DNA from: a virus | Taxonomy: Duplodnaviria > Heunggongvirae > Uroviricota > Caudoviricetes | Length of the DNA stretch: 16,504 bases | Virus record (IMG/VR): IMGVR_UViG_2778261083_000002 | Reading direction: 5' to 3' (one strand) | Shown here: positions 669 to 16,497 of the stretch, piece by piece | Layout of the letters: each line of letters opens with the position of its first letter | How positions within the stretch are numbered: position 1 is the stretch's first letter | Notes under the pieces: model-generated | What the model saw: the letters and a program-made list of their open reading frames with translations, nothing else | Told to the model about the DNA's origin: nothing | Databases searched by the model: none | Made by a program: the position numbers and the translations under genes

Positions 669-3600
669 TTAACATTCCCCCATCACGTCGCATATTTAAC
701 AGATTGCCCTGCACCCGCTGATCAACCATCCCCATAAGTGCTTTTATTGCCTGAGGGCCAATCTCTCCATTCTGGCCGTCATTTTGAATAGTGATTTGGT
801 ATACAGGGGCATAGGTAATATCTCCGCCTCCATTACCACTTTTACTATTAATAGCTCTGACACCAAGAGAACCATCGGAAGTTCGTGTTAATGGCATAAT
901 GGCTTCCGGTCCAGCCTCACCAAAAACACCAGCCCCTTTTGCAAAAGCAAAAAATTGCGGGGAATCATAAATACCGTTCGAATACGTGCTCAATGACGGA
1001 GACTCATAAACACCGCCCTTTGCATTCGGAATAAATTTACTAATAGCACTCCCGATAGTTCCTAAAATCCCCCCAGAAGAACTGTTACTAATGCTGTCGA
1101 AAATCCCAGTAATTGAAGCCTTTAATGCTATTCGACTAAGATCCGAAATCACGGAAGTAGCGAAAGAACGAAAATTTGCCTTGCCTGTCGTGACAAAATC
1201 ACCCAGCGCATCGGTCATCCCATCAAACATCTGAGTCGTGGTTGATTTTATCTGCTCACTGATATCCTTAGTGTCATCCAGCCAGTTATTGAATCCCTGG
1301 GAGGCACCACTAACCCAGTCTCCTGCCTGAATATCGAGCTGCTCGTTTTTCTGTCTGACAATTTCTTTTTCCCGTTCCAGAGCATCATTCAGAGCCTGCA
1401 TTTTCTCTTGAAAAACATGATCTGACATTCCACGGGATTTATCTGCATAGTCACGTTCAAGTTGCAGACGCTGATTGTTATATCCATGTTCAATCCGCAG
1501 TAATTCCTGCTGGCGTTGCTGATTTTTATCGCCAACCCCATAACCAGCAATCTGAATATCATACCCCTGCTGACGATTATCAATCGAAGCCTGCAATGAA
1601 TCACGCCATGCTGTTATTTCGGCGGATTCCTTGATTAGCCTGTTATTTTTTTCAATCGCAACATTTTTCTCCATCAACGTGGTTATTTCTTCCCGGTGTA
1701 AGAGAAGCGATTTCTGATCCTGGGTTAATTTCGATGATGGTCGTGACTCTAGGTCGGCAATCCGCTGACGCCACTTAACCAGTTCCTGTTCAGAGGAACT
1801 TAATTTAACGGTCAACTCAGCTTGTGAACTTAGTAACGCATTCTGTTGATTCAGATGATCAATCATTCGTTGGGCTGCATCATCAGAATAATCTTTCGCC
1901 TTTGGTTGCTTTGGATCTTTATAACGCTCATTTATTTGAGCGATAAGATTATTATATTCTTCCTTTGAATACTGATTCTTTAGCTTTTCCAGTTTTGCAA
2001 GTTCACTAGCTCTCTGCTGCTCCCGGGTCTGATATTGTTTTGAAAAGGCATCTGCTCTCTGTCTGAGTTCAATTCCTTCCTGTTGTCGCTTGTTGTAATC
2101 GTTTATTGATGAATTTAGTACGTCCTGAGCAATTTTTTCTGCTTGAAGTACGCCCAATTGCTGCTTTAATCGTGCCAGCCTTTTATTTTGAGCTCCGCCA
2201 TCTCCAATGCCACCTAACCCGAAAACTCCGGATCGGGTATTTTTTTCTATTTCATCAATTTGACGGAGAACATCTGAGATTTTTTGATCAAGGGAGGCCT
2301 CACGGCCAATATCCAGCATGGAATCCCATGCCCATTTTGCGGAGTCTGCGACAGCTTTCCATGCAGTCTCAAGATAACCAAGATTTTCTTTAATCTGGTT
2401 GGTGCGCTGGATCATTGAGGATGAGTATTCTTCTGTCGCAATGCGGGCGGCCTCCTGCTGGTTCCCTTCATCCTGTAGCGCCTTAATCTGGTTATAAGTC
2501 GCAAGTGTCAGAAAATGGTACTGATCATTAAGTTTTGATATGGCACTGACAGGATCCTTTGCAATTTCATTGAAGTCATTAACCAGTTGTTCGGTTGATA
2601 TTCCTGTTACTTCGCTCGTTTTTACTATCGCTGTCGTCACTTGCTCCAGCGAACTGCTCGCTACCTTTCCCGAACGCACAAGCTGATTTAATACTGCCGC
2701 CGCAGCACCAGTTGTCGAATCAGCCGCATTCCCGGCACGTTGAGCTAAATCGCCCAATTGCCCGCTGGTTGTCCCCAACTGATTTCCGGTAAGAATAAGA
2801 GATTTATTAAATTCGTCCTGCTCCTGAGAGCCTTTATAGTAAGCCAGTCCTAAGACCCCAACGGCTGCTGCGGCCAGGGTAAAAGGATTAATTAATCCCA
2901 GCACATAAGAACCTACCCCTTTGATCGCCGGGCCAATCCCACCGAACATATCTTTTAGCTGGCCGCCCTGCTGCATTAACACCATAAATGGCGACTGACC
3001 AGTGGACAACCCAACAACAATATCCGTCATTTGTGCAGGCAACATGCGCATAGCAAAAGCCGTTTGTTTTGCCGACATTCCGGTTTTGCTTAATTGTGAT
3101 TGAGTAACCTCAAGCTCACTCCGCATAGCACGAAGTTTTCCAGAAAGCTCCTCATACATTTCAGGAGAAAGCATCCCCTTAGCTTTTGCTTCATTGAGCT
3201 GTTTCTGTTGTTCTACCAGACGATTAAAAGCAGTTCCGACAGGATCAAGTTGAGCAATCAGACGTTGCAAAGCAACAACCTGTTCATCATGCGCTTTTGC
3301 TGCTTCTCGCTCTGCCTGAGCCTCTCCGGTAAGCTCTCGCCGTGTTTCCTGTATTTTTCGGCTATAATTCTCAAACTGAGAACCATTTATTTTCCCGGAT
3401 GCAAACGCAGCATTAAGTTCATCATGCTGTTGTTCAAGATTTCTTAGCGCCGCAGCCAGAGGGTCGATCTTGTCCAGCATTCTTTGAAAGGCCTGAGCCT
3501 GCGCTTCCTGCTGGGCGGCAGCAAGTTTTCCGGCCTTCTCGGCTTCTCTCTGCGCTTGCGCAACCCCGCTCAATTCCTCTGTGGTTTCATTAAGTTTACG

Positions 3601-4059: not shown

Positions 4060-4829
4060 CTACACACACTGCTCCTGAAAATACTGGTCATCCAGTGCAA
4101 AGATCACTGCTTCAAATTCATCGCGCTCAATCAATACCGGATGAGTGGCTAAATATTCATTTATCTCTGTCAGAGATAAAGGCAAAGGCACCCCAGCCAT
4201 TCCAGCATAACGTCGGGCACGGGATATTACCGAATAGGCGTACAACAACTCCTTAAGCACCGGGTCTATTTCTGGTTCCGGTATCGGTGGCAACCTGAGT
4301 TTTTCTCGCTTCCATCTTGCCTTTTCCCCCCTTTCTCCCCCGAACTCCGATAACCACCGCTGGGCAGCTATGGCTTTTTTATCGTATCCTGCTTCTGCTG
4401 CTCTTTACCCTGGGCGATGCTGGCTGCTTCTGCAAGGATCTGCCAGTACAACTCTGGATTCTGCTTAAGCAGCGCGATCCCTCGTTCTGCCGTATATTCC
4501 AGTGCAACCTCAACACCATTAACCAGTTCACCAACCCCTTTCCAGTCTTTCAGCAGATAACGAGCGGCATTATCAATGAGTAAATCATCAACAGAATCCA
4601 CCTCGGAAACCTTTGAAATATCAAACTCCTTCGTTCCGACGTGCAAACTGGCATCCATTTTCTCAATGTGGCGACGGATTAATGCATTACGGGAGCGATA
4701 CTGATCGTTATCGCTGCTTGCCACCAACAGTTTTAACCCGTCTACAGGTTTTAAGTCCTTCATTGGCGTAAACCAGCGTTCTCCACCAATGATAATTTTC
4801 TGATTAAGAATAAACATCCATAACCTCAT
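4060..4829 (-). CDS. Tail assembly chaperone GT-like fusion product made by -1 programmed ribosomal frameshift
   Basis: The -1 frame downstream of the slippery site is open from 4374 to the stop at 4060 (...KKAIAAQRWLSEFGGERGEKARWKREKLRLPPIPEPEIDPVLKELL...). Same genomic position and logic as the lambda G/GT pair. Confidence 0.65.
4368..4829 (-). CDS. Tail assembly chaperone (lambda gpG-like), zero-frame product
   Basis: 153-aa ORF between major tail and tape measure genes, ending ...TIKKP with the slippery heptamer in its last codons. Alternative start ATG at 4817 (MFILNQ...) has a better GAGGT ribosome-binding site than the track start at 4829. Confidence 0.75.
   Translation of the reverse strand: MRLWMFILNQKIIIGGERWFTPMKDLKPVDGLKLLVASSDNDQYRSRNALIRRHIEKMDASLHVGTKEFDISKVSEVDSVDDLLIDNAARYLLKDWKGVGELVNGVEVALEYTAERGIALLKQNPELYWQILAEAASIAQGKEQQKQDTIKKP
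4374..4380 (-). other. -1 programmed ribosomal frameshift slippery heptamer A_AAA_AAG
   Basis: Minus-strand reading is ATA AAA AAG CCA TAG. The heptamer A AAA AAG is in the correct zero-frame register (X XXY YYZ) three codons before the G stop, and the -1 frame continues open into the T segment. Confidence 0.7.
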
Positions 4830-9744: not shown

Positions 9745-10860
9745 TTAAATCCCTGCTTTTCTGAATACCTGTGCATCACGCTCACGGAGTTGCTTCAGCG
9801 TCAGCCATTCGCCTTTATCGGTGTAAAATTCATCTGGCGACATACCGCCATCCCGAATCAGCTTTGCCCGGGTTTCCCCCACAATCTGTTTTTGTCTGGT
9901 GTAAGGCTGACGCAAAAACCATTCCCTGTAGGTTGTATCTCCGGCCACCACGCCATCCATGCTGGCCCGCTCAGCCGGGGAAATATCACGAACATCAATA
10001 CCCAGTTCCTTCGCTGATTTCAGAATGAACGTTTCCGTTGAGCGGCAGCAGAAATGAATTTTTCCCGGCCCATGCAAATAAGGCACACTGTGACCTACAG
10101 GTTTATTATCCAGCGTATATTTGAGGCGATCCCTGATTCGACATTGTGGCGTAGTACGATTATCAAGCGTTGATAACCATTGCTTACCCTTAATCAAATC
10201 ATTATTCGCGCTGGCAAAACTCTCACGGGCAGTAGCAGCAAGATGTCCAACCGCTGTTTTTGCAATGCTGGCCGCATTAGCCCGGCTCATCTGCAATGCA
10301 CCATCCTGAAATCCCTTGCTGACATGTCCCCGAATTTTTCTTGCGATCTGCTCATTGGTATCCCCCAGCAAAAAACCCTGACGCACCGTATTTGTTATGC
10401 GTCTGAGCCGATCCGCCTCAAGATCCAAGGCCCACTCACTGAGCAGTCGTCCCTGGAATGGTCGCGCCATTGCAGCGGCGTAAAGTGCATCAGAAGATAT
10501 ACCAACCAGAGGGTGAACATCAGCAACAAAATCAGGTAGCAGAGAATCAAACAGACTTAACTGATAACCAGCCTCATAAATTGCCAGCTCGTTCAGCTCT
10601 CCGGAGAGACTGGTAAACATGCTGTTAATAGCAGCGCGGTTAACCTCTCTGACACTCGCCAGAAGTGACTCCAGGCGCGTAACGGTAAAACTACCAGGAT
10701 CGAGGCTGTCCAGTGCTACCAGCAGGCGAGCTGTAAGCTCCGCATCGCTGTCATTCAGTATTTTCACCATTCTGGCAGCCACACCAGTGCTATAGCGGGA
10801 TATCCAGACTGCATGAGCAATTGATTCATCACGCAGCCGTTCATTCACGGTTTGCATCAT
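9745..10860 (-). CDS. Phage head morphogenesis protein, Mu F-like / SPP1 gp7-like
   Basis: 371-aa ORF immediately downstream of the portal gene. The segment WLSTLDNRTTPQCRIRDRL...GKIHFCCRST resembles the conserved core of Mu F-like minor head proteins. Its start overlaps the portal 3' end by 20 nt. Confidence 0.7.
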   Translation of the reverse strand: MMQTVNERLRDESIAHAVWISRYSTGVAARMVKILNDSDAELTARLLVALDSLDPGSFTVTRLESLLASVREVNRAAINSMFTSLSGELNELAIYEAGYQLSLFDSLLPDFVADVHPLVGISSDALYAAAMARPFQGRLLSEWALDLEADRLRRITNTVRQGFLLGDTNEQIARKIRGHVSKGFQDGALQMSRANAASIAKTAVGHLAATARESFASANNDLIKGKQWLSTLDNRTTPQCRIRDRLKYTLDNKPVGHSVPYLHGPGKIHFCCRSTETFILKSAKELGIDVRDISPAERASMDGVVAGDTTYREWFLRQPYTRQKQIVGETRAKLIRDGGMSPDEFYTDKGEWLTLKQLRERDAQVFRKAGI

Positions 10861-12249: not shown

Positions 12250-13551
12250 TTAAATCCGAAGTGATGTGACTCTTCCGGTCGGTTTGACAATAGGGAATTG
12301 CTTAACGATGAAATAACCTCCGGCATCATTCGGGTGATCATTGCCAGATTTTTTATCAGGCTCCCCCTTATCATCCCAGACCTGTTGCTCCAGAGATTCG
12401 GCATATACCGGACAACGCTTCACATTAACTTTATAGCGACGCTCACCATTGGCATTGCAGAACATTGCATTCATTGAGTTAACGCGATCTTTTACTGGCG
12501 GGTTCGAGCTGTTCACCACAACGTTAAAACCTGCCTGCTTAAGCTGGGCTATATCCGTCGTACTTGCGTTACTTGATTTTCTGGAATCTCCGGAAGCATC
12601 TGGATAAATATAAATCTCCCTCACTTTCCGGTAATCATGCCCGTCATACAGCCAGAAGCGTTCTTTAATGAGGCGGATCATATCCGGCGTATCGTAGGCA
12701 TTGATGATTTCAGTTACCGCACATGGAAGCCCCAAACGCAGCACATGGACGATTCCCGCCATCTTTCCAACGTTAAAATCCATCCCAATATAAATCGGCT
12801 CCCCTGGCTGCTCCACTTCTTCGCAATTATTCAGTTTCCGGTCAAACTGATGGTAAACAGTACCACTTGTCAGGTTAGTAAACCGTCCTAGAAGATAGGC
12901 TTTAATCAGCTCTGGAGGGTATGATTCAAGAAGTGAAGGAATGTAATCTGCTGGCAGGTTCTTTTCATTATCGAAAGTAGATGCCTGCACCAGACCATAC
13001 AGTGAGGCCAGCTCTGTTTTTTCACGCACGGCTTTAACAAACTGCTCGTAGACAAATTTGAATCCTTCCGGCGTGGTTGTAACGTCAATACCGTTGCGAA
13101 GTCCATCAATCTTATAACGCATACGCGCAATTATCTTGCGCCACGCCGTTCTGGCTTTTTCCTTCGGCAAAATGTCCAGTTCATCCACCAGCGCATTACC
13201 AATTTTGAAACCGACGATCGTTTGTGGCTTCTCCATCGATCTGCAGATAGTGGTTCCCCGATACTGGCGTCCGTAATAAAAGTGAACCTCTTTATTTCCC
13301 TCATTAATTTTTACGTTCAATCCCCAGTCAGCAGCAACTTCTTCCACTGTAGGGTAAAAAATATCGCGAATTTGGGGATACGTTGGCGCAAAATATCCCT
13401 GATTTATACCTGGATGCTCCCAAATCCCCTTGCATATGCCGCCACACCCAACCCATGTTTTGCCCGAGCCAAAACCAGCAATATAGGCTTTAAATTTATG
13501 GGGCATTGAAAGAAATCGCGCCTGAGGCACATTAAGCGTCGGAGAGATCAT
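12250..13551 (-). CDS. Terminase large subunit
   Basis: Walker A AGFGSGKT near the N-terminus, Walker B-like LVDELD, and a C-terminal nuclease-like region (IYIGMDFN). Preferred start is ATG 13551 (MISPTLNV...) with AAGGAG 8 nt upstream; the track start at 13560 is GTG. Overlaps the terS 3' end by 20 nt. Confidence 0.9.
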   Translation of the reverse strand: MISPTLNVPQARFLSMPHKFKAYIAGFGSGKTWVGCGGICKGIWEHPGINQGYFAPTYPQIRDIFYPTVEEVAADWGLNVKINEGNKEVHFYYGRQYRGTTICRSMEKPQTIVGFKIGNALVDELDILPKEKARTAWRKIIARMRYKIDGLRNGIDVTTTPEGFKFVYEQFVKAVREKTELASLYGLVQASTFDNEKNLPADYIPSLLESYPPELIKAYLLGRFTNLTSGTVYHQFDRKLNNCEEVEQPGEPIYIGMDFNVGKMAGIVHVLRLGLPCAVTEIINAYDTPDMIRLIKERFWLYDGHDYRKVREIYIYPDASGDSRKSSNASTTDIAQLKQAGFNVVVNSSNPPVKDRVNSMNAMFCNANGERRYKVNVKRCPVYAESLEQQVWDDKGEPDKKSGNDHPNDAGGYFIVKQFPIVKPTGRVTSLRI

Positions 13552-14626
13552 CTTCATCACTCCTTAATCTGGCATCAACCACATTAATATTGATCGCCAC
13601 AGGCTGGGGATGTTCATTATCCTCCACCGTTTCGATCTCTTTGCGCAGCTTCTGGTTCTCTATTCTGCGCCGTTCAATTTCCAGTTCCTGTAGCCGCTTA
13701 TCTGCACATAATGCCCCGCCAGCAGAAAGCAAACGCAACAATTCACGCCGGGCGGCAGCCTTATCCTCCAGCAGGATCTCAACACCGTATTTTCCGAGCT
13801 TTGACCCTGCATATAATTGCCGCGCATCCCCATCAAGCAGTGTGGTATCAGCCATATAAAGCTGTCCTGTTCCCTCACCGCAGCACTTCGGGCAATCAGG
13901 ATTGGGTATGGCGTTATCAACAAAGCCGAGGCCTCCATATTCCGGCTCGGGTTTACCATCTCTGGAGGCCTGTGCCGCAGCCTTATCGAATTCTGCAATA
14001 TCACGCCACTGGTAGAGATGATTCTCGCCCCAGCAATAACGGCAGTTAACACGGCGAAATTGTGCCAACTGATTGGGGTCGGCCTGGACAATGGCCATCA
14101 ACTGGCTCACCAGTAAATCCAGGTCTGCGGTATAGCGTTTCTGGTACTGATTGCGGAAGTAGCTGATAGCACGATAAACCCTGGCATTTCTAAGCATACG
14201 GCTGGCGTTGCTGTTAGCTGTCGCACCTTGCCCCTCATAACCAGCCAGTCGGTATGCCTCTGTCGGCTTTTTCCCCTGAGCAACCAACATGGCGAATTTT
14301 GCCTGCTGGTCAGAAATACCGAATTCATCGGGGCAGAACGAAATTTCTTCCGTGTCCCCCTCAATCAGGAGTGCATCGGATACAGCCTTTTTTTTCTGAG
14401 ATTTTCCGTTCTGCCTTTGCGCAGTCTGCGCAGTTTTTTTTCGCGCACTTTTTTGCGCAGTTTTGCGCATTTCTTTCTGCGCATTTTTCGGAGTTTTTTT
14501 GATGTAACGACGGGCTGTTGCGTAGTTCAGTCCCCTTGCTTCACACCATGCCACCGGAGATATACCGGAGCGGGTGTATTCAGCAATATACTCCTGCTGC
14601 AACGCCCCCCAGTCCGGTCTGCTCAT
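13532..14626 (-). CDS. Terminase small subunit, atypically long (364 aa)
   Basis: Central segment QQAKFAMLVAQGKKPTEAYRLAGYEGQGATANSNASRML resembles the HTH core of small terminase subunits. It is preceded by a second, similar HTH-like N-terminal segment (YIAEYTRSGISPVAWCEARGLNYATARRYI) and a Lys/Ala/Gln-rich linker, and followed by a Cys4 motif (CRYCWGE ... CPKCCGEG). Directly upstream of the large subunit. Confidence 0.8.
   Translation of the reverse strand: MSRPDWGALQQEYIAEYTRSGISPVAWCEARGLNYATARRYIKKTPKNAQKEMRKTAQKSARKKTAQTAQRQNGKSQKKKAVSDALLIEGDTEEISFCPDEFGISDQQAKFAMLVAQGKKPTEAYRLAGYEGQGATANSNASRMLRNARVYRAISYFRNQYQKRYTADLDLLVSQLMAIVQADPNQLAQFRRVNCRYCWGENHLYQWRDIAEFDKAAAQASRDGKPEPEYGGLGFVDNAIPNPDCPKCCGEGTGQLYMADTTLLDGDARQLYAGSKLGKYGVEILLEDKAAARRELLRLLSAGGALCADKRLQELEIERRRIENQKLRKEIETVEDNEHPQPVAININVVDARLRSDEDDLSDA
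14418..14483. repeat. Array of six TGCGCA-type palindromic hexamers separated by T/A homopolymer tracts, inside the terS 5' region
   Basis: TGCGCA at 14418, 14427, 14454, 14464 and 14478, plus CGCGCA at 14442. Spacings are 9-15 bp, with T7-T8 runs at 14390-14397, 14434-14441 and 14494-14500. Extended consensus is TYTGCGCAK. Confidence 0.7.
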
Positions 14627-14629
14627 CAG

Positions 14630-14881
14630 TTAGTCCTGATTTTTATCCACCCTGAGTAGTTCGCGCAGAGCAAAGGCATCCCCTTTTCTGGCAAGCTTAA
14701 ACAATGCCGCTCGTAACTCGGCTTCACCTTTCGCTCTGCCCTTACGGATGGCCGCATAAAAATCTGTCATTGCTTCCCGATTTTCTTTCAGTCGGTTCAG
14801 ATCAACATCCAGAACGTCAGCGATTTGTTGTGCAGTCATCCGGCACGCTGCCAGAGACTCGACTTTCGAATACGGAATCAT
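14630..14881 (-). CDS. Small HTH-like protein (about 69-83 aa), function unknown
   Basis: ORF immediately upstream of terS. The segment MTAQQIADVLDVDLNRLKENRE resembles the N-terminal HTH of lambda Nu1-type small terminase or excisionase-like proteins. Start is ambiguous (14881 or ATG 14839), and it overlaps the 3' end of the upstream gene in another frame. Confidence 0.55.
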   Translation of the reverse strand: MIPYSKVESLAACRMTAQQIADVLDVDLNRLKENREAMTDFYAAIRKGRAKGEAELRAALFKLARKGDAFALRELLRVDKNQD

Positions 14882-15749
14882 TTGTCACCCCCATTGATAT
14901 GCAGGGTGTCTTCTTCCTGTATTTTTCGTGAAGGATTTTTACTGCAGCGTTGTTCCAGGTGACCTGATGGTGAATGCGTTTATGGCTGGCACCCATCAGT
15001 GAGATTTTTACGCACGACGGCGAATACATGACGGAGTAAAAACTTTTAACGTAGGTTCCGGAATCCAGATACAGCTCGGTCATTCCGCCGCTGTTTTTCT
15101 GCGTCTGTTTCTGCCCTAACTGGACAGCACCGATCGTCATAAACAATTCACCACAGCGACCGAGATTCGTGTACGTATTCACATCCTCGTTAATGCGCCC
15201 CATGAATGAGAACGGTCGATCAACCGAACAGATAAAGCTGTTCATTGCCTTGCGTTTCACCCACGAAGCATGGCCGCCATTGTCACCAAGAAAATCCCCG
15301 CCCTGCGACATAGCGATGGAAAGCGCGGGTATTGATTCGTAATACGCCAGCATTTCAGAAAGGATCGCATCCAGTTTCCTTATCGGGAAATAGGCCTGGT
15401 CATAGTTGCGATCCACCCGAAACTGGAACTCGTGAAAATCATCATCGAGCTGAATGAAGTATTTACACCCGACCAGTTTTGCCAGGTCGAAACAGGCATT
15501 ACGGGCGTAAAAAATTGAGCGGCGATCACCAAAATTATCGGCTTCGTCAAAACGACTGGCAATATCGGCTTTGGAAAATACCAGCACCTGTTCACCAAAT
15601 TCAGCCATGTACTGATGCCGTGTCTTATCTTCATCATCAACAACGATAAAAATTTTCCCGGTATAGCCAGCACGACGCAACGTCCGGTAAGTCAGAACTT
15701 TGTCCGGTCGCCCGTGAGTCAGAATAAAGGCGCAAAAATCATCACGCAT
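14817..15749 (-). CDS. Putative GT-A-like (DxD motif) nucleotide-sugar transferase; function unknown
   Basis: About 310 aa. Contains beta-strand-like FCAFILTHGRPD, an acidic-ended strand KIFIVVDDED, and YFIQLDDDF (DxD) with spacing reminiscent of the GT-A fold. Preferred start is ATG 15749 (MRDDF...), preceded by GGAGGAGGAGGAA, and it overlaps the ParB-like stop (ATGCGTGA). The in-frame track start at 15773 is an alternative. Confidence 0.6.
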   Translation of the reverse strand: MRDDFCAFILTHGRPDKVLTYRTLRRAGYTGKIFIVVDDEDKTRHQYMAEFGEQVLVFSKADIASRFDEADNFGDRRSIFYARNACFDLAKLVGCKYFIQLDDDFHEFQFRVDRNYDQAYFPIRKLDAILSEMLAYYESIPALSIAMSQGGDFLGDNGGHASWVKRKAMNSFICSVDRPFSFMGRINEDVNTYTNLGRCGELFMTIGAVQLGQKQTQKNSGGMTELYLDSGTYVKSFYSVMYSPSCVKISLMGASHKRIHHQVTWNNAAVKILHEKYRKKTPCISMGVTNDSVFESRVSGSVPDDCTTNR

Positions 15750-16497
15750 ATTCCTCCTCCTCCTCCCCGCCATGCATGATCTCCACCATGCGCTGCGTCA
15801 TTCGGACAAATCCATTTTCAATAGCCTGCTGATAATCAATGATCACCAGCGCCGACTCCTCGAAAAGGCACTGAATTTCAGCGGGGGCATGAGCGTAATA
15901 GTCCGCAATTCTGCTGAAATTAAACACTGTGTGACGTTCTGCCGCACACAGGAGGAATTTCTCAATATCAGGATCAAGGGACGCCGAACGTATCCGGCTG
16001 ATCAGCTCCTGAGTTTTCGTATCGTCGTACAGTTCACTGATATCCGGTTTACCGCCCGACGGCTCATAAACAGGCGTATCAATTTTCGTCGTATACGGCT
16101 CCTCCTCATTTCCTGTACCGGGCAAAACATCCGTCAACAGTTCATCAATTTCTGTCGGGATGAAGCCTGTCAGGGAGACATCAAAATCAGCATTGATTAG
16201 GTCCGACAGCTCCATCCGCAACAGATCTTCATCCCAGCCAGCATTCATCGGCAGGCGATTATCTGCCAGGCGGTACGCCTTTTTCTGCTCATCCGTCAGG
16301 CCAGACAGAACAATGACCGGAACAGAATCCATTTTGAGCATTTCAGCCGCCATAACACGACCGTGACCCGCAATAATTTCGCCCTTTTCGTCAATCAGCA
16401 CCGGATTAGTCCAGCCGAATTGCTTAAGGAAGGTGCGAACAAGTTCCTGATATGAGATCATCATATTCATCCGGAGCGCATCCCAGAGGGACATCAT
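15742..16497 (-). CDS. ParB-like nuclease-domain protein; N-terminus may extend beyond the window end
   Basis: N-terminal segment PVLIDEKGEIIAGHGRVMAAEMLKMDSVPVIVLSGLTDEQKKAYRLADNR resembles the ParB/sulfiredoxin nuclease domain (GxxR box). Acidic C-terminal tail GGEEEEEYA. The frame is still open for the two codons between 16497 and the window edge. Confidence 0.7.
   Translation of the reverse strand: MMSLWDALRMNMMISYQELVRTFLKQFGWTNPVLIDEKGEIIAGHGRVMAAEMLKMDSVPVIVLSGLTDEQKKAYRLADNRLPMNAGWDEDLLRMELSDLINADFDVSLTGFIPTEIDELLTDVLPGTGNEEEPYTTKIDTPVYEPSGGKPDISELYDDTKTQELISRIRSASLDPDIEKFLLCAAERHTVFNFSRIADYYAHAPAEIQCLFEESALVIIDYQQAIENGFVRMTQRMVEIMHGGEEEEEYA

Follow-up and report, generated by a model that had tools for sequence, protein, structure and literature searches.

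A small terminase with an additional helix-turn-helix domain and a candidate packaging signal within its own gene

Small terminase subunits (TerS) pick the DNA that enters the phage head and thereby influence transduction, both generalised and lateral, as well as piracy by satellites and phage-based delivery of DNA. We know of no pac site for most temperate enterobacterial phages, and the recognition of DNA by TerS is, to our knowledge, poorly understood even in the model systems. Here we describe the terS gene in a 16,504-nucleotide (nt) stretch of DNA from a virus of the Caudoviricetes (IMG/VR record IMGVR_UViG_2778261083_000002), which is referred to below as the window. The encoded protein of 364 amino acids (aa) contains two helix-turn-helix (HTH) segments, and the DNA coding for the linker between them holds an array of TGCGCA palindromes, which probably represents a pac recognition signal read by the first HTH.

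Among the described systems, the small terminase G1P of the phages SF6 and SPP1 (PDB 3zqp, 3zqq and 2cmp) shares with this locus the position of terS directly upstream of terL, the gene of the large subunit (TerL), and the order, from the N- to the C-terminus, of DNA binding, oligomerisation and TerL contact. The oligomerisation helices of G1P align with the protein of the window on both sides of an insertion, in which a module of ~90 aa with four conserved cysteines (Cys4) takes the place of a hairpin connection of ~15 residues. In addition, an extra, unrelated HTH and a linker of ~55 aa precede the Terminase_2 domain. The HTH contacts of SF6 are weak and largely sequence-independent and involve bent DNA (PMC4737164), whereas the TerS described here seems to bring in a distinct, repeated sequence motif as well.

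The pac site of phage P1 consists of seven TGATCA/G hexamers in 161 bp, inside the pacA gene (PMC10028697). The window resembles this arrangement in that the candidate signal lies within the gene of the recognition subunit and comprises multiple near-palindromic hexamers; the repeats of relatives of the Min27 type contain GATC, as do those of P1. No sequence similarity was found between this TerS and P1 PacA. Unlike the P1 hexamers, TGCGCA contains no GATC site for Dam, and therefore offers no basis for Dam control, and the window has a single cluster of sites, while P1 has two that flank the cleavage site.

An added domain ahead of Terminase_2 has been reported as unusual in the TerS of the Bacillus phages Sam46 and Sam112, which carries an N-terminal FtsK_gamma domain proposed by the authors to recognise short specific sequences (PMC8190038). 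The two cases are alike in having a second, unrelated DNA-binding domain in this position; however, FtsK_gamma is a winged helix, while the domain found here is a three-helix HTH, and no array of sites within the gene was described for those phages. Short-form TerS proteins of the phages F116, Bcep22, BcepIL02, DC1 and PEp14, with hosts such as Pseudomonas (F116), Burkholderia (Bcep22) and Erwinia (PEp14), are 32-40% identical to the protein of the window over aa ~100-284, from the Terminase_2 HTH through the core, and the F116-/Bcep22-like forms have the same four cysteines. In contrast, they contain neither the N-terminal HTH nor the linker, and among F116, Bcep22 and Skulduggery no array is present in or near terS.

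The array of the window includes five TGCGCA palindromes, starting at positions 14418, 14427, 14454, 14464 and 14478, and one degenerate copy, CGCGCA (TGCGCG), at 14442-14447. Five of the ten TGCGCA hexamers of the whole window are found here within 66 nt, which makes the array the densest non-trivial hexamer cluster in the window; neither block shuffling of the window (300 times) nor composition-preserving shuffling of the linker (2,000 times) ever gave five copies. The locus thus contains, as expected of a pac site of the P1 type, at least four near-palindromic copies inside a terS-type gene at a density above chance. In the six-site version, with all six copies exact in the related locus L058, the sites are spaced by 14, 10, 12, 15 and 9 nt, and Tandem Repeats Finder gives periods of 12, 24 and 36 nt at the linker. 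T/A tracts 4-8 nt long lie between the sites; the centres of most tracts are 11-14 nt from each other, and two gaps are longer. The cluster second in density, 84 nt at 4389-4472 in the region between the tape-measure and tail-tube genes, has AAGCAG or its complement four times.

The linker encoded by this DNA (about aa 47-80) is rich in lysine, threonine, alanine and glutamine, and its length differs by whole repeat units between close relatives. A first, sequence-only reading of the window had correctly traced the composition of the linker to a palindrome array, but it had described the linker as low-complexity and basic, and comparison with relatives revealed that the repeats are conserved as DNA and not as peptide. 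For each locus of ~7 kb, the 90-nt stretch with the highest count of any one hexamer was located. Among the 37 loci in which TerS carries an N-terminal HTH, this cluster, of 4-7 copies, was positioned at terS aa 30-50 in 33; no such cluster was found in the short-form phages F116, Bcep22 and Skulduggery, in which the N-terminal HTH is absent. Nine genes of the TGCGCA type, with pairwise identities of at most 75%, together contain 48 copies of the hexamer, distributed over frame 2 (36 copies), frame 1 (6) and frame 0 (6) and encoding 14 peptides (TAQ, SAQ, NAQ, PAQ, GAQ, AAQ, TAH, MRK, VRK, LRN, MRN, LRK, LRT and CA).

The excess of frame 2, in which the hexamer codes for x-Ala-Gln, the unit-sized length variation and the Lys-rich, poorly ordered character of the linker would all fit an explanation in which the linker is a mere low-complexity basic arm, with peptide repeats that arose by replication slippage and of which the DNA repeats would be a side effect. 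This explanation fails because the hexamer occupies all three frames and encodes 14 peptides, inverted copies of the motif in several lineages code for unrelated peptides, and an array with a 12-nt period persists under the linker of Min27, IDHEIDHKTDHEIDHD, which is acidic and His-rich while that of the window is basic. The codon choice also speaks against it: x-Ala-Gln/His tripeptides are coded as NNT-GCG-CAN in 36 of 38 cases in the linkers, whereas codon use in the remainder of the same genes predicts ~5.6%. The residue ahead of Ala is of seven kinds, the third-position T is kept in every one of them, and Ala is nearly always GCG, while in the rest of the nine genes T-ending codons account for 18-53% and GCG for 20% of the Ala codons. 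The nominal binomial P of 5e-43 for NNT-GCG-CAN is overstated, since the copies share descent. A peptide origin of the repeats is therefore regarded as very improbable, and we are highly confident, from these comparisons, that the linker array is an element conserved at the DNA level.

In several 365-aa database proteins (among P0008-P0012) the linker is read in another frame (..NSEKCAERNAQNCAKKCAKKKLRRLRKGRTENLRKKK..), the frame being restored before aa ~81 with the TGCGCA sites unchanged, and in locus L036 (3001-4093) a 1-nt insertion in an A-run breaks the gene. The frame-shifted linkers may be either compensated frameshifts or homopolymer sequencing errors; given the latter option and the broken gene of L036, they were set aside as proof of frame tolerance.

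The motif of the array differs between lineages and, as judged from covariation, it tracks the third helix of the N-terminal HTH and not the core of the protein. TGCGCA, which is the motif of the window and of its relatives down to 39% identity, pairs with ..ARRYIK on cores that are 39-46% identical (L069, L072, L078 and L089) and on the unrelated scaffold of the Stx phage GER2. The 'ANSQK' lineage has TGCGAA, often within a 12-bp palindrome TGCGAATTCGCA, and here the helix is ..AKRYIK, both on closer cores (48-62% identical) and on the scaffold of the Klebsiella phage RothD. In a third lineage five copies of GTACGC followed by a single inverted GCGTAC pair with ..AIRKRAKKNGWVR, in a fourth GTTTCCAC followed by inverted GTGGAAA pairs with ..INxRxxxEGW, and in a fifth GGGGCAA followed by inverted TGCCCC pairs with ..ALRYMAxKxGWIR. 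The helix ..TARTRIKM of Min27 accompanies (C/T)GATCATGA, repeated four times with an exact period of 12 nt. L069, L072 and L078 have a second cluster 54-64 nt downstream, while the window has a single one.

In Min27 (L090, NC_010237) the terS gene at 2501-3307 encodes a related N-terminal HTH with ..NTARTRIKM, and the repeats include GATC sites for Dam. By analogy with the Dam-controlled pac site of P1, the (C/T)GATCATGA repeats of the Min27/933W type are a candidate pac site of phages that matter medically. A literature search returned nothing relevant on TGCGCA in connection with terminases, on the pac site of 933W or on that of the Rac prophage.

The N-terminal module is not confined to one kind of TerS. 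It was found on the unrelated scaffolds of RothD, GER2 and Min27, the last of which, with the module, occurs in more than 100 records of Stx2a-converting phages; it is attached to TerS of at least three unrelated scaffolds and is always located just upstream of terL, which confirms that the N-terminal part is a separable unit. In F116, Bcep22 and Skulduggery, the DNA up to 2 kb from terS contains no separate open reading frame (ORF) for the N-terminal HTH. When viral contigs were searched for stretches with three spaced TGCGCAR motifs, 88 of the first 120 had an ORF with a match to the profile of the N-terminal HTH no more than 450 nt away, and most of the other 32 proved to be truncated loci or unrelated repeats, either tandem or at the peptide level.

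In a few cases (L144, L155, L151 and L193), TGCGCA arrays neighbour another HTH protein or stand in non-coding sequence. Arrays in or beside HTH ORFs other than terS are located in L144 (~10801-10830), L155 (~3512-3546) and L208 (~4286-4316), and the examples include a 252-aa protein in which ..EATARGYISKL.. is followed by an array and a 476-aa ORF with five copies. Layouts with a reader and an adjacent site may extend beyond terminases.

We estimate at roughly 60% the probability that the array is a pac recognition signal, which the N-terminal HTH reads to begin packaging, as the covariation suggests. The N-terminal HTH (aa 1-46) would be the sequence-specific reader, and it would be the coding DNA of the linker, not the peptide, that matters, with the five to six TGCGCA sites forming the cognate site and the place of terminase assembly. 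Several N-terminal HTHs of a TerS oligomer would bind successive TGCGCA sites, the T/A tracts between the sites could bend the DNA, and the Terminase_2 HTHs would contribute weak, non-specific contacts, as in SF6 (PMC4737164). The C-terminal tail would recruit TerL, and headful packaging would then start nearby. The reader and the site lie within ~250 bp, and therefore mosaic recombination cannot part them.

Several observations weigh against this interpretation. The evidence that the HTH would bind TGCGCA consists of covariation and adjacency, and we infer initiation or cleavage at the array by analogy. Many of the loci are kin by descent, so the counts overstate their independence. The spacing of 9-15 nt, with a mean of ~12 nt, has no clean helical repeat, and codons determine part of it. 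F116 and other short-form members package DNA with no such module, hence the cassette is dispensable for TerS function generally. The structural model of the protein is a monomer prediction, and the Cys4 segment is matched by no Pfam zinc-finger model. Finally, the array could equally serve autoregulation.

More broadly, the array might be a regulatory site, an operator or a roadblock, through which TerS or another protein controls expression of the late operon. Selection at the DNA level and covariation with the HTH are silent on the events after binding, and the few TGCGCA arrays found near other HTH proteins or in non-coding DNA would suit such a function. However, a regulator need not be fused to a packaging protein, the module is specific to TerS of at least three unrelated scaffolds just upstream of terL, and pac sites within genes of the terS type are established, for example in P1 pacA (PMC10028697). 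A regulatory role is therefore considered unlikely, though less so than the peptide-repeat explanation, and the array is preferentially regarded as a packaging signal.

More tentatively, the HTH and the adjacent array may constitute a self-contained specificity cassette that is exchanged horizontally across unrelated TerS proteins, including those of Stx2a-converting phages, and that favours loading in cis. The site is located less than 100 nt downstream of the codons of the reader, and with coupled transcription and translation the nascent TerS may load preferentially onto the DNA from which it is made. The location of pac inside the gene of the recognition subunit is known already; the HTH with its site array as a portable cassette would be the new element.

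The two HTH segments of the protein are both predicted confidently as three-helix segments, in agreement with the sequence-only reading, which had further described them as similar and duplicated and had suggested a possible fusion of two DNA-recognition modules. The second proposal holds, as two modules are combined, while the first was not borne out by alignment of the pair, in which no kinship was detectable: BLASTP of aa 1-80 against aa 81-194 gave an E-value of 4.7, and hhalign of a 20-sequence N-terminal profile against a 22-sequence profile of the Terminase_2 HTH gave a probability of 0.2% with one aligned column. The family of the N-terminal HTH matches HTH_50, HTH_38, HTH_23 and PF10668, that is, transposase-, resolvase- and homeodomain-like HTH models, with a weak match of the query itself to the HTH of IS66 TnpA, whereas the second HTH is that of Terminase_2 and has the G1P-type fold. 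Internal duplication of one DNA-binding domain could be suspected from the tandem arrangement of two short three-helix bundles in the model, but with these differences, and with the first domain absent from most family members, it is hardly credible. At the sequence level the two are unrelated types of HTH. The coordinates of the domains and of neighbouring features are listed in Table 1.

Table 1. Features of the terS region; positions refer to the whole 16,504-nt window
Feature	Coordinates	Strand	Basis and remarks
Coding sequence (CDS) of terS	13532..14626	minus	ATG start, 364 aa, stop codon 13532-13534; ORF list, Pfam, PHROG, RefSeq
N-terminal HTH, aa 1-46 (MSRPDWGALQQEYIAEYTRSGISPVAWCEARGLNYATARRYIKKTP), third helix ..TARRYIKK	14489..14626	minus	translation, AlphaFold2 (AF2)
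Linker, aa 47-102	14321..14488	minus	AF2 predicted local distance difference test (pLDDT) 47-78, <50 at aa 68-88
Five TGCGCA palindromes and CGCGCA, candidate pac recognition site	14418..14483	no strand	counts, shuffles, relatives
Terminase_2-type HTH DNA-binding domain, aa 103-147	14186..14320	minus	
Long helix, aa 148-182, counterpart of the first SF6 G1P oligomerisation helix	14081..14185	minus	AF2 H148-181
Cys4 insertion module, aa 183-275	13802..14080	minus	AF2 pLDDT ~97
Beta hairpin and helices, aa 276-336, second half of oligomerisation core and long C-terminal helix	13619..13801	minus	
C-terminal tail, aa 337-364 (..PQPVAININVVDARLRSDEDDLSDA), putative TerL-docking peptide	13535..13618	minus	
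terL (large terminase), overlaps terS end	12250..13560	minus	Terminase_6N and Terminase_6C; RefSeq annotation
83-aa ORF, ends 4 nt before terS	14630..14881	minus	phrog_309, E 8e-23

The identification of the gene product as a small terminase, made from the sequence alone, is well founded. Pfam Terminase_2 (PF03592) aligns its profile positions 19-129 with aa 122-316 and scores 36.1 bits, above the cut-off of 26.1, phrog_51 'terminase small subunit' matches the full length (aa 1-364, E 6.4e-75), and the gene lies upstream of and overlaps terL. A profile of the family matched SF6 G1P in a profile search of PDB (E 1.9e-16), while a PDB search with the single TerS sequence yielded one marginal match and nothing more. 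The unusual length that had been noted is also real, given that the Terminase_2 profile has 141 positions and most members of the family have 240-260 aa. When 1.84 billion representative sequences were searched exhaustively with HMMER, 1,776 related clusters emerged, of which 1,261 had E<=1e-10; the majority align solely with aa ~104-300 of the query, and a minority of 300-380 aa have an N-terminal extension.

The protein and its DNA are 100% identical to the CDS of RefSeq WP_000089446.1, labelled 'terminase small subunit', which is located in a Rac-like prophage with trkG and ydaY close by. The gene is present in 896 of 5,426 complete Escherichia coli genomes, the match covering at least 80% of its length in 852, and full-length homologues with 40-55% identity occur on ~30 independent viral contigs. 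As such, terS is an ordinary, abundant and already annotated gene. It encodes the small terminase of a Rac-like lambdoid E. coli prophage, assembled from exchangeable modules.

These data also bear on the concern that the long ORF is an artefact, made of two genes fused by a sequencing frameshift or a deletion. The record of phage Rac-SA53 does label its terS 'gpOterS; fusion of two genes by deletion', and in the IMG/VR copy L036 the A-run insertion described above disrupts the frame. Nevertheless, no frameshift or stop that splits the ORF was found; its abundance in E. coli genomes, the full-length RefSeq CDS and the identical architecture on the ~30 viral contigs mean that it is no frameshift artefact, and every domain is modelled confidently by AF2, so that we give this explanation practically no weight. 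In Rac-SA53 (L002, KU052037) the terS homologue at 2794-3822 matches the query over aa ~39-284 only, and heat-labile enterotoxin IIa genes are located directly upstream of it. In P0011, P0039 and P0041 TerS is joined to tail-fibre domains (a 616-aa protein) or to TAGT (565-aa proteins); these joins are probably artefacts of gene calling or assembly and not real fusions.

The structure was modelled as a monomer with AF2 on an alignment of 106 sequences, a single-sequence AF2 model (pLDDT 45) having been discarded. The mean pLDDT is 85.5, and 244 residues have values of at least 90. The N-terminal HTH consists of the helices H6-20, H24-30 and H35-38, with pLDDT 87-95, and is followed by a low-confidence helix at aa 47-72 and a disordered stretch of the linker. 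The second HTH (H106-116, H121-127 and H135-146) is modelled with high confidence. Up to profile position 88 the family profile aligns with residues 21-102 of SF6 G1P, and positions 184-220 align with residues 117-153; aa 188-286 form a mixed alpha/beta region. The second half of the core comprises E272-278, E281-286, H289-302 and H305-336, and the acidic C-terminal tail is disordered, with pLDDT <50. A ring of 8-12 subunits, built from the helical hairpin and a C-terminal beta barrel, is expected of the family, and TerS may form such a ring, as both halves of its hairpin align with SF6, although the ~90-aa insertion separates them. The N-terminal, Cys4 and C-terminal segments, each scanned separately against Pfam at E<=10, had no useful match.

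The cysteine motifs of the C-terminal half that had been recognised in the sequence are present as CRYC (aa 195-198, 14033-14044) and CPKCC (aa 245-249, 13880-13894), and both knuckles have the form CxxCxG. In 105 of 105 diverged full-length homologues (27-55% identity) C195, C198, C245 and C248 are invariant, as are R196, G200, G250, G252 and G274, while the fifth cysteine, C249, is variable, so that the conserved pattern is CxxC...CxxC, two pairs of potential metal ligands as in a zinc ribbon or a DnaJ-type CxxCxGxG zinc knuckle. The segment aa 190-255 is the best conserved of the family, with 40-76% identity, compared to just 20-50% for the Terminase_2 HTH. The Pfam alignment, with 195 residues on 111 profile positions, is consistent with an insertion relative to G1P. 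The four cysteines are almost certainly structural, and a single structural zinc site formed by the two CxxCxG knuckles is the most likely and most economical reading. No curated zinc-finger or ribbon model and no solved structure matched the module.

The Cys4 module is real, yet family-wide. The core that contains it is standard in a large Terminase_2 subfamily, with the 1,261 clusters mentioned above, and therefore represents no peculiarity of this locus; to this extent the architecture is that of a known TerS family. A review of small terminases names zinc fingers solely for herpesvirus subunits (PMC9611059), and the literature searched contained no description of zinc, CxxC or a zinc ribbon in phage TerS. 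Herpes simplex virus 1 (HSV-1) pUL28 and human cytomegalovirus (HCMV) pUL56 are DNA-recognition subunits of terminases with Cys-based zinc sites (PMC9611059), such as the one predicted here. However, there is no detectable homology, the fold and architecture are different, and the parallel is a functional one only.

In the loci L004-L089, discrete types of the C-terminal ~30 residues of TerS can be distinguished, and each type co-occurs with one type of TerL. The tail ..PVAININVVDARVR.. is found with TerL proteins 83-100% identical to that of the window, even where the cores are 39-45% identical (L069, L072 and L089), tails of the type ..HN[SA]LPxPG are found with a different TerL of ~440 aa, and three more tail types pair with three more TerL types. 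Comparison of these loci indicates that the tail type follows the TerL type independently of the core, and the tails behave like putative exchangeable TerL-docking peptides. The C-terminus of TerS is conventionally assigned to the contact with TerL, which fits this pairing. The TerL of the window is 40-52% identical to those of siphophages of the Kagunavirus and Jerseyvirus types, which are headful packagers.

The 83-aa ORF adjacent to terS matches positions 145-218 of the 319 of phrog_309 'terminase small subunit' and has no Pfam match. It occurs in the same position in loci with four array motifs, is 55-81% identical among them and is more conserved than TerS. This HTH-like ORF was considered as a reader of the array and rejected, because it is conserved across four different motifs and is therefore not the specificity reader; it may act as a late regulator or as an accessory to packaging. 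Immediately ahead of the packaging genes, the minus strand encodes a TET-associated glycosyltransferase (TAGT; 14817-15773; PF20691, E 1.7e-34; phrog_842 'beta-glucosyl-HMC-alpha-glucosyltransferase') and a protein with a ParB-like nuclease domain (15742-16497), a pair that hints at hypermodification of DNA by the prophage. In strain 13KWH46 the ParB-like gene is interrupted by an IS3 element.

The Cys4 insertion defines a subfamily of more than 1,200 clusters, including the transducing phage F116, for which no solved structure or published description was found. The locus as a whole suggests a sequence rule in three parts, namely the type of the N-terminal HTH, an array of hexamers or octamers that matches it within the following ~100 nt of coding sequence, and a tail matched to TerL. 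About one-sixth of complete E. coli genomes carry the prophage to which the rule applies, and it covers TerS of Stx2a-converting phages as well. If the HTH and its array do form an exchangeable cassette, the pac sites and specificities of many uncharacterised temperate phages would be readable from terS, and the specificity of packaging could be re-programmed by swapping ~250 bp.

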